25,129 nt of DNA from the IMG/VR virus record IMGVR_UViG_2706794666_000002; one strand, 5' to 3'. Position numbers and translations under genes: made by a program. This stretch comes from a virus (lineage: Duplodnaviria; Heunggongvirae; Uroviricota; Caudoviricetes). Shown in pieces: positions 1 through 23,716 of this stretch. The notes under the pieces were generated by a model. The model did no database searches. It worked only from the letters and a program-made list of their open reading frames with translations, and was not told the DNA's origin. How positions within the stretch are numbered: the first letter of the stretch is position 1; each line of letters starts with the position of its first letter.

Positions 1-245
1 CCACGGGAATATCTGCGGCAGCGGGCTTGTAATGGGTTAAGTGATAACAGATGTCTGGAAATATAGGGGCAAATCCAATCGTCGCCGTATTCCCGTATTA
101 ACAGAGACCGTAGCCCGACGGGGAACTCCTTCTGCGCGAGTGTGCGGGAATAATCAAAAACGATGCACACCGGGGTTACCGGGTACACATATTTCATCAT
201 GCCAGCGAGTCCGGTTCTGGCACGGAAGAAACCGGACGTTATGAT

Positions 246-656
246 TTAGTGCGGAAATATTTGTGTAGTGTTCTGTATGTTCTCAGTAAAGAGTAATGAA
301 TTATCAAAGGTATAGTAATACCTTTTGTTTTCGTGGATATTTGTAATCCATCTGAAAACCCCTGCTGTAGCAAGATTTTTCCTGTATTCGTAAAATGATA
401 ACTCTCCTGATTTGAATCCTTTTAAGGTGGCTTCTATAAGGCATTTATTTTTTGAAAATCTTACATTTACAACCTTACCCTGTCCTTTTATTAAAACCGT
501 ATTATCGTTTTCAAGAACAAGATGAATATTCTCTGTGGCTAAATAGTAAATGTAATGTGAGACATTGTGACGTTTTAGTTCAGAATAAAACCAGTGATAG
601 TTTAAATTATTTCGCACTTTATCGAATATTTGTTTAAAAATGGCAACCTGAGCCAT
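246..656 (-). CDS. Hypothetical moron protein, probably DUF1398 (YbcV/YdfO-like) family; 136 aa from the second ATG
   Basis: Minus-strand ORF 246..671 in the six-frame track. The second in-frame ATG (656) has a GGAAGG Shine-Dalgarno about 8 nt upstream, the first (671) has none. Very AT-rich relative to the packaging genes. Family assignment is from memory of K-12 cryptic prophage proteins next to nohA/nohD and is not verified. Confidence 0.55.
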
Positions 657-713
657 TGTAGTACCTTCCATGTGATCTGAGGGGGCGTAGTCTGCACGAT
701 TATCTAAATTGCT

Positions 714-947
714 TCAATCTGGTCTAACCTGTTTTCTGAGCAATTCAGTAATGTCACTCTTTTCTTTGTTTGCTTCAGGCGAAACTCTTTTTTCTGAGCA
801 CAGTCTCCGGCGGCAGGCTTCAATGACCCAGGCTGAGAAATTCCCGGACCCTTTTTGAACAAGAGCGATGTTAATTTGTTCAATCATTTGGTTAGGAAAG
901 CGGATGTTGCGGGTTGTTGTTCTGCGGGTTCTGTTCTTCGTTGACAT
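714..947 (-). CDS. Small ribbon-helix-helix-like protein of the YlcI/YnfO (DUF3950) family, 77 aa
   Basis: Minus-strand ORF. N-terminus MSTKNRTRRTTTRNIRFPNQMIEQINIALVQKGSGNFSAWVIEACRRRL matches my recollection of YlcI/YnfO, which sit next to the terminase small subunit in E. coli cryptic prophages. Basic N-terminus followed by a beta-strand/helix pattern typical of RHH DNA binders. Confidence 0.7.
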   Translation of the reverse strand: MSTKNRTRRTTTRNIRFPNQMIEQINIALVQKGSGNFSAWVIEACRRRLCSEKRVSPEANKEKSDITELLRKQVRPD

Positions 948-1133
948 GAGGTTGCCCTGTATTCAGTGTCGCTGATTTGTATTGTCTGAAGTTGTTTTTA
1001 CGTTAAGTTGATGCAGATCAATTAATACGATACCTGCGTCATAATTGATTATTTGACGTGGTTTGATGGCGTAGATGCACGTTGTGACATGTAGATGATA
1101 ATTATTATCATTTTGCGGGTCCTTTCCGGCGAT

Positions 1134-1158
1134 CCGACAGGTTACGGGGCGGAAGGCG
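1134..1158. other. cosN (terminase nicking site); predicted 12-nt cohesive end at 1147..1158
   Basis: 1134..1146 (CCGACAGGTTACG) matches the lambda right terminus. The following 12 nt read GGGCGGAAGGCG, against lambda GGGCGGCGACCT as I recall it, and are followed by the lambda-like CGCGGGTTTTCGCTATTTATGA. Lies 189 nt upstream of nu1, as in lambda. Confidence 0.6.
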
Positions 1159-1189
1159 CGCGGGTTTTCGCTATTTATGACAATTTTCC

Positions 1190-1315
1190 GGTTTAAGGCG
1201 TTTCCGTTCTTCTTCGCCGTAACCTAATGTTTTTATTTAAAACACCCCCTGAAAAGAAAGGAAACGACAGGTGCTGAAAACGGGCTTTTTGGCCTCTGTC
1301 GTTTCCTTTCTCTGT
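1190..1315 (+). promoter_or_regulatory. cosB: terminase small-subunit binding region with three R elements and an AT-rich putative IHF site between them
   Basis: CGTTTCC motif at 1199..1205 (direct), 1260..1266 (inverted, GGAAACG) and 1300..1306 (direct). The outer two form an 11-bp inverted repeat (1260..1270 / 1296..1306). This is the same arrangement as lambda R3-I1-R2-R1 upstream of nu1. Confidence 0.65.
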
Positions 1316-1335
1316 TTTTGTCCGTGGAATGAACA

Positions 1336-1855
1336 ATGGAAGTCAACAAAAAGCAGCTGGCTGACATTTTCGGTGCGAGTATCCGTACCATTCAGAACTG
1401 GCAGGAACAGGGAATGCCCGTTCTGCGAGGCGGTGGCAAGGGTAATGAGGTGCTTTATGACTCTGCCGCCGTTATAAGATGGTATGCCGAAAGGGATGCT
1501 GAAATTGAGAACGAAAAGCTGCGCCGGGAAGTTGAAGAACTGCGGCAGGCCAGCGAGACAGATCTCCAGCCAGGGACTATTGAGTACGAACGCCATCGAC
1601 TTACGCGTGCGCAGGCCGACGCACAGGAGCTGAAAAATGCCAGAGACTCCGCTGAAGTGGTGGAAACCGCATTCTGTACTTTCGTGCTGTCGCGGATCGC
1701 AGGTGAAATTGCCAGTATTCTCGACGGGATCCCCCTGTCGGTGCAGCGGCGTTTTCCGGAACTGGAAAACCGACATGTTGATTTCCTGAAACGGGATATC
1801 ATCAAAGCCATGAACAAAGCAGCCGCGCTGGATGAACTGATACCGGGGTTGCTGA

Positions 1856-1881
<26 letters not shown>
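1336..1881 (+). CDS. nu1: Terminase small subunit Nu1, 181 aa
   Basis: ORF 1336..1881. Protein MEVNKKQLADIFGASIRTIQNWQEQGMPVL... is near-identical to lambda Nu1 with its N-terminal winged helix-turn-helix. Overlaps the start of A by 26 nt, as in lambda. Confidence 0.95.
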
Positions 1882-5569
<3,688 letters not shown>

Positions 5570-20806: not shown

Positions 20807-23716
20807 ATGGCAGTAAAGATTTCAGGTGTACTGAAAGACGGCACAGGAAAACCGGTACAGAACTGCACAATCCAGCTGAAAGCAAAACGTAACAGCACCA
20901 CGGTGGTGGTGAACACGCTGGCCTCAGAAAATCCGGATGAAGCCGGGCGTTACAGCATGGACGTTGAGTACGGTCAGTACAGCGTTATTCTGTTGGTGGA
21001 AGGATTCCCGCCGTCACATGCCGGGACCATCACCGTGTATGAAGATTCCCGACCCGGTACGCTGAATGATTTTCTCGGTGCCATGACGGAGGATGATGCC
21101 CGTCCGGAGGCACTGCGCCGTTTTGAGCTGATGGTGGAAGAGGTGGCGCGTAACGCGTCCGCGGTGGCACAGAACACGGCAGCCGCGAAGAAATCAGCCA
21201 GCGATGCCAGCACATCAGCCCGTGAGGCGGCAACCCATGCGACTGATGCTGCAGATTCAGCACGTGCAGCCAGCACGTCAGCCGGACAGGCCGCTTCGTC
21301 GGCTCAGTCAGCGTCTTCCAGCGCAGGAACGGCATCAACAAAGGCCACTGAAGCCTCAAAAAGTGCTGCCGCTGCAGAGTCCTCAAAAAGCGCGGCGGCT
21401 ACCAGTGCCGGTGCGGCGAAAACGTTAGAAACGAATGCGGCAGCGTCACAACAATCAGCAGCCACTTCTGCATCCACCGCGACCACGAAAGCGTCAGAAG
21501 CTGCCACCTCAGCCCGGGATGCGTCGGCTTCAAAAGAGGCGGCAAAATCATCAGAAACNNNNNNNNNNNNNNNNNNNNNNNNNNNNNNNNNNNNNNNNNN
21601 NNNNNNNNNNNNNNNNNNNNNNNNNNNNNNNNNNNNNNNNNNNNNNNNNNNNNNNNNNNNNNNNNNNNNNNNNNNNNNNNNNNNNNNNNNNNNNNNNNNN
21701 NNNNNNNNNNNNNNNNNNNNNNNNNNNNNNNNNNNNNNNNNNNNNNNNNNNNNNNNNNNNNNNNNNNNNNNNNNNNNNNNNNNNNNNNNNNNNNNNNNNN
21801 NNNNNNNNNNNNNNNNNNNNNNNNNNGAGGCGACCAGACAGGCGTCAGCAGCGAAGGGCAGCGCCACGACGGCATCCACGAAGGCGACAGAGGCTGCTGG
21901 TAGTGCGACGGCAGCAGCTCAGAGCAAAAGTACGGCGGAATCTGCAGCAACGCGCGCTGAGACAGCGGCAAAACGGGCAGAGGATATTGCATCCGCCGTG
22001 GCGCTTGAGGATGCGAGCACGACGAAAAAGGGGATAGTACAGCTCAGTAGTGCGACTAACAGCACTTCCGAGTCACTGGCGGCAACACCAAAAGCCGTTA
22101 AGGCCGCGTATGACCTGGCTAACGGGAAATACACCGCACAGGATGCAACGACAGCACAGAAAGGGATAATCCAGCTAAGCAGCGCGACCAACAGCACGTC
22201 TGAAACGCTGGCGGCAACGCCAAAGGCAGTAAAAGCAGCCAATGACAATGCTGAGAAACGTCTGCAGAAAGATCAGAACGGTGCGGATATCCCTGGCAAA
22301 GACACCTTTACGAAAAATATTGGTGCCTGCCGTGCCTTCGGTGGGTCAGTAAGCACAACAACAGGAAACTGGACGACTGCACAGTTTATCGAGTGGCTGG
22401 ATTCTCAGGGAGCATTTAACCATCCATACTGGATGTGCAAGGGTTCCTGGTCTTATGGCAATAATAAAATCATTACTGATACTGGCTGCGGTAATATTCA
22501 TCTCGCCGGAGCTGTCATTGAAGTAATGGGGATAAAGTCAGCGATGACGATCCGCATTACCACTCCGACCACATCCAGCGGTGGCGGAACAACCAACGCC
22601 CAGTTTACCTATATTAATCACGGAACAGATTATTCACCTGGCTGGCGAAGGGACTATAACTCCAGAAATAAGCCAACGGCATCAGAGATCGGGGCGCTAC
22701 CGTCAGGTGGAACAGCAGTATCATCAGTTAATCTGGCTTCAAAAGGTCGGGTAGCCGCGCTGACAGACAATACGCAGGGGGCAGCAGGTCTTGAGTTATA
22801 CGAGGTGTATAACAACGGATATCCAACAGCGTATGGAAATATCATTCACCTGAAAGGGATGACAGCCGTTGGCGAAGGTGAGTTACTCATCGGCTGGAGT
22901 GGTACAAGCGGTGCTCATGCTCCGGCATTTATTCGTTCACGACGGGATACGACCGACGCAAACTGGTCGCCGTGGGCGCAGCTTTACACCTCGGCTCATC
23001 CTCCTGCAGAGTTTTATCCAGTCGGTGCACCAATCCCGTGGCCATCAGATACCGTTCCGTCTGGTTATGCCCTGATGCAGGGGCAGACTTTTGACAAATC
23101 TGCTTACCCGAAACTTGCAGCCGCTTATCCGTCAGGCGTGATCCCTGATATGCGTGGCTGGACGATTAAGGGCAAGCCCGCCAGTGGTCGTGCCGTATTG
23201 TCTCAGGAACAGGATGGCATTAAATCGCACACCCACAGCGCCAGCGCATCCAGTACGGATTTGGGGACGAAAACCACATCGTCGTTTGATTACGGCACTA
23301 AATCCACGAATAACACCGGGGCGCATACGCACAGTCTGAGCGGCTCTACAAGTTCAGCTGGGGCCCACCAACATAGTCAGACTGGGCCCAGAACGAATAG
23401 CGGGAGTCAACCTACTGGAATGTTTCCGGCAGGGAGTACTCAAGTTAGCGGGACTAATCAGGTTGGTATCAGTGGCTCATTAACCAGTGGCACCTCCCAA
23501 TGGGTAGGTAAATCATCTTCAGAAGGAAACCATACACACTCACTGTCCGGCACAGCAGCATCTGCGGGTGCACACGCGCATACTGTCGGTATTGGTGCTC
23601 ATACGCACTCTGTTGCGATTGGTTCACATGGACACACCATCACCGTTAACGCTGCTGGTAACGCGGAAAACACCGTCAAAAACATCGCATTTAACTATAT
23701 TGTGAGGCTCGCATAA
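20807..23716 (+). CDS. stf: Side tail fibre protein Stf (about 969 aa as written; contains a 268-nt N run)
   Basis: N-terminus [60 protein letters not shown] and C-terminus ...[31 protein letters not shown] match lambda Stf. The frame is continuous across the N run. The central about 230 residues are not lambda-like. Confidence 0.9.
21559..21826. other. Run of 268 undetermined bases (N) inside stf
   Basis: Directly visible. Falls inside the Ala/Ser/Thr-rich low-complexity part of Stf. Confidence 1.
22027..22240 (+). repeat. Two imperfect direct copies (about 82 nt each, about 132 nt apart) encoding the phage tail-fibre repeat motif
   Basis: 22027..22108 encodes [30 protein letters not shown]. 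22159..22240 encodes [30 protein letters not shown]. Confidence 0.75.

Follow-up and report, generated by a model that had tools for sequence, protein, structure and literature searches.

Immediately to the left of the cohesive-end site of a lambda-like virus, two small genes lie on the strand opposite to the packaging genes, and the question that they raise is whether they constitute an accessory cassette foreign to lambda, as had been predicted from the sequence, or a regular constituent of the right end of lambdoid genomes. The stretch of DNA that was analysed (25,129 nucleotides of the Caudoviricetes record IMGVR_UViG_2706794666_000002, hereafter the window) contains a lambda-like late region in which Nu1 (1336-1881) is followed by terminase, head, tail and tail-fibre genes. 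Two minus-strand ORFs are located left of Nu1, one at 714-947 (77 aa) and the other at 246-671 or 246-656 (141 or 136 aa, respectively). The features of the interval are as follows:

246-656, minus strand: DUF1398 (YdfO/YbcV-type) coding sequence of 136 aa and a stop codon; translation from a further ATG upstream, at 671, would yield 141 aa
664-669, minus strand: Shine-Dalgarno-like GGAAGG, 7 nt before ATG 656, kept in lambda, DLP12 and Qin
699-733, minus strand: candidate DUF1398 promoter block, TAGACC-16 nt-GATAAT (726-699), overlapped by the PdhR-box-like ATCTGGTCTAACCTGTT (717-733)
714-947, minus strand: DUF3950 (YnfO-type) coding sequence, 77 aa, with core codons 1-50 (798-947) and lineage-specific tail codons 51-77 (714-797)
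731-784, no strand assigned: Qin-type junction segment of 54 nt, without lambda counterpart (blastn breakpoints)
948-1146, no strand assigned: non-coding stretch from the DUF3950 start up to the cosN nick; identity to the terminal 199 bp of lambda is 95%
1147-1158, plus strand: cosN 12-nt cohesive end in the variant form GGGCGGAAGGCG, given as context for the position left of cos

Gene content and family assignment

The two minus-strand genes of 77 and 136 aa are present as originally predicted, both antisense to the late operon and separated by 57 nt from the DUF3950 stop codon to ATG 656, which is the start used for the K-12 annotation of the DUF1398 homolog. Their location just left of cos also holds, with the DUF3950 start 199 nt from the cosN nick, which is placed at 1146/1147 because 1146 is the last position aligned to the lambda right end. 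The non-coding stretch between them contains an inverted repeat (1017-1029/1037-1049), and the junction segment is bounded by a 14-nt direct repeat (729-742 and 787-800).

The profile searches that had been suggested as a check support both family assignments. The 77-aa ORF matches Pfam DUF3950 (PF13132; 72.8 bits against a cutoff of 25, E 2e-20), NCBIfam YlcI_YnfO_N (NF041551; 35.2 bits, cutoff 30) and PHROG 949 (E 6e-33), while the 136-aa ORF matches Pfam DUF1398 (PF07166; 147 bits, cutoff 22), its residues 13-131 covering positions 1-119 of the 119 in the profile. A match of the latter protein to E. coli YdfO, whose structure has been solved (PDB 2HH8, E 1e-69), was also obtained, and the two share a fold with a duplicated alpha2-beta3 unit. 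Both ORFs are genuine genes under purifying selection, which is very strong on the first 50 codons of DUF3950. When the window was compared with the copies of Stx phages, the DUF3950 core gave a dN/dS of 0.03-0.10 at dS 0.7-1.6 (16-23 synonymous vs 6-10 non-synonymous changes in codons 1-50), and the DNA upstream of those copies is unrelated to that of the window. For DUF1398, dN/dS values of 0.18-0.35 were obtained in the comparison of the window with lambda, DLP12 and Qin.

The description of the pair as an AT-rich cassette applies to one of its members. DUF1398 has a GC content of 0.314 vs 0.53-0.58 in the packaging and tail genes; DUF3950 reaches 0.444 as a whole, with 0.369 in the tail and 0.487 in the conserved core (798-947), which is thus not strongly AT-rich.

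A Qin-type allele of the lambda right-end region

The interval is a Qin-type allele of the accessory region that extends from the lysis genes to cos at the right end of the lambda family, and it does not carry the ybcW/lambdap79 module. By blastn, window 77-730 corresponds to lambda 46875-47527 (82.5%) and window 785-1146 to lambda 48141-48502 (95.0%), that is, to the last 362 bp before cosN. Based on these alignments, homology to lambda does not restart at about 960, as had been proposed, since it spans everything but 731-784. Nor are the genes absent from lambda, as previously believed: at the lambda right end (bor-gp78-lambdap79-YlcI-like ORF-cos) both have homologs in equal order and orientation. 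The last 136 residues encoded by gp78/lambdap78 (J02459, 47042-47575) constitute the DUF1398 domain, and the first 49 residues of a 64-aa YlcI-like ORF (48109-48303) differ from the window DUF3950 at one position. This ORF carries no annotation in J02459, and its equivalent in the lambda-derived phage O276 is named "YlcI/YnfO family protein" in RefSeq. The classic lambda record therefore has no annotation for a small gene with a core that ranks among the best-conserved sequences of lambdoid phages.

What distinguishes the alleles is the segment between the two genes. In place of the 54 unrelated nucleotides of the window (731-784), lambda has 613 nt, which accommodate lambdap79/ybcW on the plus strand and give DUF3950 another tail, of 14 residues, and the DLP12 prophage of K-12 shows the lambda arrangement (borD-ybcV-ybcW-ylcI-nohD). 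The Qin prophage of K-12 presents the arrangement of the window, with ynfO (b4533) and ydfO (b1549) beside nohA; neither the gene lengths nor the 57-nt spacer differ, and blastn aligns window 208-1400 collinearly to Qin at 90%. The sequence comparisons thus identify K-12 ynfO/ydfO as orthologs of the two genes, and the YlcI-like ORF and gp78 of lambda as their homologs. There are differences with Qin, as the window DUF1398 protein is about 75-80% identical to YdfO (dS 0.67), and Qin is a truncated remnant whereas the window is part of an apparently complete lambda-like late region. The homology to lambda together with the collinearity with Qin rule out a foreign, non-lambda insertion.

The arrangement is widespread. 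Sequences matching window 200-1150 were detected in 3992 of 5426 complete E. coli genomes, and a probe for the Qin-type junction (window 690-830, which includes conserved flanks) matched 2177-2244 of them (~40%); the lambda-type 613-nt ybcW segment was found in 1362-1947 (~25-36%). In IMG/VR, 80 loci with a YnfO-type gene were surveyed, and Nu1 was divergent upstream in 68 and DUF1398 downstream in 79, the contig ending there in the loci without one of these neighbors. Where these contigs were long enough, the layout was Nu1 (divergent), DUF3950, DUF1398, in some cases KilA-N, and then Rz. Since the cassette is frequent in E. coli and PGAP already names both genes in the matching genomes, it can be regarded as known and ordinary. 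The main outcome is thus a correction of the first reading: the window has the commoner of two alleles of the lambda right-end region, an accessory region that is annotated in thousands of genomes.

Relationship between the two genes and the nature of DUF1398

Adjacency of a small DNA binder and a second protein had suggested that the two genes are partners, and the corresponding explanation is that they form one lysogen-expressed module in which DUF3950, as regulator or antitoxin, controls a DUF1398 effector with a toxin-antitoxin-like, exclusion or anti-phage role. The genes are indeed neighbors on one strand with 57 nt between them, their shared reading frame is interrupted by a single TGA, this is their commonest layout (79/80 IMG/VR loci; ~40% of complete E. 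coli genomes), and a small ribbon-helix-helix gene that precedes a second gene resembles the organization of type II toxin-antitoxin systems. The synteny survey, which had been suggested as a check, showed that the pair is common but not obligate. Five Stx-type phages with HNH-TerS-TerL genes have DUF3950 but no DUF1398; in them, 41 bp separate DUF3950 from the HNH gene, to which it is divergent. Conversely, DUF3950 was not present within ~4 kb of the diverged DUF1398 genes in any of the 28 loci examined (ycgX type, 44-53% identity; copies of Klebsiella, Kluyvera, Pseudocitrobacter and Salmonella diarizonae, 28-39%), and lambda and DLP12 have a third, convergent gene between DUF3950 and DUF1398. 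The proposed pairing is contradicted by these observations, as each gene exists alone and co-inheritance as a unit was not found.

The control region of DUF1398 points in the same direction. Upstream similarity of the lambda-type and Qin-type alleles begins ~75 nt before the DUF1398 ATG, at the candidate promoter block, and because this block is common to both alleles it is suggested that DUF1398 moves with its own control region. The candidate promoter matches 9 of 12 consensus positions, a score that alone is not above chance in the promoter scan. The last codons of the window DUF3950 tail extend into this block, which fits the lineage differences after residue ~50 vs the near invariance of residues 1-50. 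With regard to a toxic or defensive function, the second gene has no recognizable toxin fold or family, and among the PADLOC-DB 2.0 models DUF3950 had no match and DUF1398 only one at chance level (12.6 bits), in agreement with the earlier view that such a role lacked support. In addition, a strain with a ybcV deletion (Keio strain, PMC3945230) and a ybcV overexpression clone (ASKA library, PMC2853380) were viable enough for use. Altogether, a regulator-effector module is considered very unlikely, and a toxin-antitoxin or defence cassette was rejected on the basis of co-inheritance, the separate promoter block and the lack of a PADLOC match and of a toxin fold.

The continuous frame across the TGA looks like chance. 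A 233-aa fusion produced by a TGA-to-TGG change was found on only 6 contigs, the 761-member cluster that includes it consists mostly of ordinary 136-aa proteins, and in the lambda-type upstream sequence a 1-nt indel breaks the DUF3950-DUF1398 frame.

Several reports on the K-12 homologs are relevant to expression. The counterparts of ATCTGGTCTAACCTGTT are PdhR targets detected by gSELEX at ybcV<>ybcW and within ynfO>ydfO in K-12, and the mRNA levels of ybcV and ybcW decreased ~10-fold in a pdhR mutant (PMC7660256). The ydfO transcript increased ~116-fold by qPCR after ionic-liquid shock (PMC4077768) and ydfO was among four Qin genes altered by DicC induction (PMC11430063). Overexpression of T4 MotB, which perturbs H-NS silencing, raised ybcV and ybcW more than 1000-fold in BL21(DE3) (PMC7827196); prophage induction may contribute to this rise. 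Furthermore, ybcW and ylcI were classed as convergent, overlapping transcripts in no fewer than half of the RNA-seq samples of another study (PMC12288877). Because of these results with the K-12 homologs, independent and host-controlled expression is supported, and late read-through as the only source of transcripts, which had been put forward as an observation that would speak against the original prediction, is disfavoured. The evidence points to independent transcription of the two genes. The K-12 homologs are located in cryptic prophages without late transcription.

Regarding the nature of DUF1398, its conserved positions are mostly aromatic or aliphatic, in addition to R15, T41, N43 and R112, and neither an N-terminal signal sequence nor a catalytic-looking set of conserved residues was recognized by eye. 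No informative fold relative was found, and our best guess is that DUF1398 is most likely a binding protein. The family is small (189 representatives among 1.84 billion clusters) and, in a scan of one genome per species, restricted to Enterobacteriaceae; occurrences in Pedobacter, Flavobacterium, Bacillus-like and other genomes correspond to lambda control DNA in the assemblies. Some members are single chromosomal genes outside prophages. The neighbors of diverged copies, inspected by eye, are yedE-yedF, a carbonic anhydrase with a GGDEF protein, or fatty-acid genes depending on the genus, and guilt by association was rejected since they change from genus to genus.

Existing labels were also evaluated. 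A weak match to Pfam HEPN_AbiA_CTD (R15-x5-H21) might suggest a HEPN nuclease, but H21 is not conserved in the DUF1398 family. The original prediction had stated that placement in a structural phage family would argue against an accessory role, and the name "head protein" (PHROG 413, RefSeq) is nominally such a placement; it was judged an unsupported, propagated label given that the gene is oriented opposite to the late operon, that lambdap78 is dispensable and that single chromosomal relatives exist. "Putative envelope protein" was dismissed as being without support. A published claim that YdfO overexpression confers resistance to oxidative stress cites Wang et al. (2010), where the proteins named are YfdK, YfdO and YfdS of CPS-53 and ydfO does not appear. 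This role, apparently the product of a mix-up between the names YfdO and YdfO, was not used.

The accessory character of DUF1398 is in line with the finding that lambdap78 is non-essential by CRISPRi, with an efficiency of plating (EOP) of 1.9 upon knock-down (PMC10695390). The lambda morons bor and lom are useful for comparison: like the two minus-strand genes, they lie on the strand opposite to the late operon and have homologs expressed from prophages, and DUF1398 resembles them in its low GC, its dispensability in the lytic cycle and its patchy presence, being absent from the HNH-type Stx phages. DUF3950, unlike bor and lom, is not optional, as it was found in every lambdoid examined, and its core has a near-normal GC content that makes it a weak case for distinct base composition. 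Moreover, Bor and Lom, whose phenotypes are known, are exported to the envelope, whereas the two proteins studied here have no obvious N-terminal signal sequence (by eye).

DUF3950 at the packaging boundary and lambdap79

In all phages examined the packaging module is directly preceded by DUF3950, which lies on the opposite strand and adjoins two unrelated terminase systems, lambda Nu1/A and HNH-TerS-TerL. Residues 1-50 are almost invariant and those after ~50 are hypervariable and lineage-specific. An AF2 monomer model displays an extended N-terminus and helices at 19-32 and 34-52, with a core pLDDT of ~86 and low confidence in the tail; that no beta-strand is called in the monomer is expected because the partner chain is absent. 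With hhalign, DUF3950 TRNIRFPNQMIEQINIALVQKG aligns to Arc QFNLRWPREVLDLVRKVAEENG (TRNIRFP on QFNLRWP; E 0.059, probability 0.9%), in a register that is that of a ribbon-helix-helix and places N14 and R16 of DUF3950 on the base-contacting N11 and R13 of Arc. In Foldseek nothing was significant, and two ParD ribbon-helix-helix antitoxins ranked second and third (E ~8). Among Pfam families, 25 DUF3950 members matched DUF3950 only, with no ribbon-helix-helix family at E<=10, and the family profile retrieved no PDB chain at that threshold. DUF3950 is similar in size to Arc/Mnt of P22, with a basic N-terminal arm, N-[IL]-R-[FW]-P, a helix, G-x-[SG]-x-x-S and a second helix; the arc and mnt genes lie in the immI region, whereas the DUF3950 gene adjoins packaging genes. 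The previous description of the 77-aa protein as ribbon-helix-helix-like is thus confirmed for the YlcI/YnfO (DUF3950) family and finds no significant ribbon-helix-helix match. Since profile and fold searches lacked such a match, we present it as a reasonable inference from the model, and not as a result, that DUF3950 is probably an Arc-like DNA binder.

The DUF3950 promoter must lie within 948-1146, a stretch where the promoter scan revealed no minus-strand sigma-70 consensus; the search for an operator of DUF3950 likewise yielded none, and no RNA family was matched in Rfam.

The position of DUF3950 may be taken to mean that it serves packaging, as a DNA-binding accessory factor at or near cos or through an effect on the expression of the terminase genes. 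Such a role could account for its presence before two unrelated packaging modules and for the very strong conservation of its core, and it is in keeping with a promoter-like site directed toward Nu1 between DUF3950 and cos and with the listing of DUF3950 in capsid-forming PICIs of Enterobacter, which have their own packaging genes (PMC13612085). DUF3950 is, however, antisense to the late transcript that encodes the packaging proteins, no DNA motif common to the lambda-type and HNH-type upstream regions was found, and its position could just mark a module boundary that tolerates recombination. Short cos fragments are enough for lambda packaging, and decades of lambda genetics are not known to have placed a packaging gene at the right-end region. 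A packaging function is regarded as unlikely. The same position admits another explanation, in which both genes would be the first available after injection and counter host defences. The right end of lambda enters the host first, DUF3950 starts at a distance of 199 nt from the right cohesive end, both genes are directed away from this end, and the neighboring lambdap79 is sensed by a defence system, therefore the region meets host immunity. Against this, lambda DNA enters and circularises fast, so the end position matters little; homology to known anti-defence proteins was not found, and homologs are retained and transcribed in cryptic prophages that never inject. Entry genes of this kind are accordingly held to be highly improbable. 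It is also conceivable, if quite unlikely, that in lambda and its relatives an overlooked Arc-like DUF3950 regulates the lysis-packaging boundary or acts from the first-injected DNA end. For example, it might keep rightward transcription off the terminase genes in the lysogen, and the blocked transcription could start at the promoter-like site, which overlaps a perfect Fur-type palindrome beside cos.

The explanation that we favour, and hold to be rather likely, is that of a Qin-type allele composed of an Arc-like regulator (DUF3950) and an optional cargo gene for a binding protein (DUF1398), in which the lack of lambdap79 should avoid the Vulcan defence. DUF3950 is predicted to be a small ribbon-helix-helix DNA-binding protein of the Arc type, of which only the first 50 residues would be functional, the tail being whatever recombination joined to them. 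It would be made in the prophage state from a leftward promoter within the 199 bp beside cos, and not from the late transcript, and it would probably act as a transcriptional regulator at the lysis-packaging boundary, its site in every phage examined. The DUF1398 protein, in turn, would be cytoplasmic and soluble, with a pseudo-dimeric alpha/beta architecture and most likely a binding role, and would be encoded by an optional AT-rich cargo gene with a putative promoter block of its own. Control of this block by the host factors PdhR and H-NS has been reported for the K-12 homologs ybcV and ydfO only. Without lambdap79, the phage of the window should avoid the Vulcan NADase defence. What interest the region retains comes from DUF3950, a small gene of the best-studied phage whose conservation is extreme and whose position does not vary.

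Recently, it was reported that lambdap79 activates the Vulcan NADase, a defence that depletes NAD, and that seven of seven lambda-vir escapers from Vulcan lacked lambdap79, probably via recombination with Qin (2026 preprint, 10.64898/2026.09.04.749371). The arrangement of the Qin recombinant among these escapers is that of the window. Recombination of lambda with the DLP12, Qin and Rac prophages was described by De Paepe et al. (PMC3945230), where the Qin interval assayed corresponds to the tail-fibre genes. Since lambdap79 is reported to trigger Vulcan and escape to arise, probably, through recombination with Qin, the natural polymorphism of the right end, with the junction in ~40% and the ybcW segment in ~25-36% of complete E. 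coli genomes, may reflect selection by host immunity.

Sequence elements around cos

The region between the cosN nick (1146/1147) and the first packaging gene, Nu1 (1336-1881, plus strand), and its immediate left flank contain the following elements (window coordinates):

1096-1110 (with 1084-1111): perfect palindrome TGATAATTATTATCA, with the cosN nick 36-50 bp to its right
1147-1158: 12-nt cohesive end GGGCGGAAGGCG
1199-1211, 1254-1266, and 1300-1311: CGTTTCC-type repeats in direct and inverted orientation
1255-1311: 26-nt inverted repeat, directly ahead of Nu1

The palindrome TGATAATTATTATCA is the 7-1-7 Fur-box consensus, TGATAATnATTATCA, and no match to it was obtained in 100 shuffles of the window. 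It overlaps the -10 element of a promoter-like site on the plus strand, GTGACA-16-TATCAT (10/12), which is aimed across cos toward Nu1. This Fur-type palindrome was detected in all the lambda-type loci fetched (Nu1/A packaging), including lambda, DLP12 and Qin, and was absent from the HNH-type loci fetched, which carry the HNH-TerS-TerL packaging genes. In the literature searched, the palindrome beside cos is nowhere named as a Fur site in lambda.

The cohesive end of the window differs from that of lambda (GGGCGGCGACCT) at 6 of 12 positions, and the two phages would have ends that fail to anneal with each other. The same form was shared by 7 of the 80 surveyed IMG/VR contigs with a YnfO-type DUF3950 gene; the lambda form was present in about 50 of them as well as in PhiR49_1 (98.6% identity overall), DLP12 and Qin. 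The CGTTTCC-type repeats ahead of Nu1 presumably correspond to the R sites of cosB, bound by Nu1; an Rfam search of 1199-1311 returned only miRNA matches, at chance level.

Structure around the DUF3950 and DUF1398 genes

The Qin-type allele (the window and K-12 Qin) is set apart from the lambda-type allele (lambda and DLP12, with lambdap79/ybcW between both genes) by a 54-nt segment, which is flanked by a direct repeat:

729-742 and 787-800: 14-nt direct repeat, CTGTTTTCTGAGCA / CTTTTTTCTGAGCA

The recombination that produced the Qin-type junction may have left this repeat behind. The DUF3950 (714-947, minus strand) and DUF1398 (246-656, minus strand) ORFs share one frame, separated by a single TGA (714-716) and 18 stop-free codons (657-713), and rare natural TGA-to-TGG fusions of both domains were found (P0014, 233 aa, on 6 contigs, and P0010). 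The shared frame looks incidental, since it is broken by a 1-nt indel in the lambda-type sequences. The sole published functional claim on YdfO, the DUF1398 protein of Qin, is protection against oxidative stress (PMC4077768); the work cited therein (PMC3105296) reports YfdO of prophage CPS-53, not Qin YdfO.

Lambda control DNA and masked sequence

Contigs that match the lambda right end exactly were found in many unrelated bacterial assemblies (loci L017-L040 and L049-L053), for example those of Pedobacter, Flavobacterium, Cohnella and Kitasatospora, and as a 3566-bp “plasmid” of Arcanobacterium hippocoleae. Most of them carry the lambda-type YlcI-like, YbcW and gp78 genes, and many are about 3.5 kb in size; the nanopore control strand measures 3.5 kb. 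These contigs are control-DNA contamination, which has also inflated the protein-database match lists.

Two masked N runs in the window, at 3140-3394 in the terminase large-subunit gene and at 21559-21826 in the side-tail-fibre gene, give rise to spurious stretches of X and to dips in GC content.
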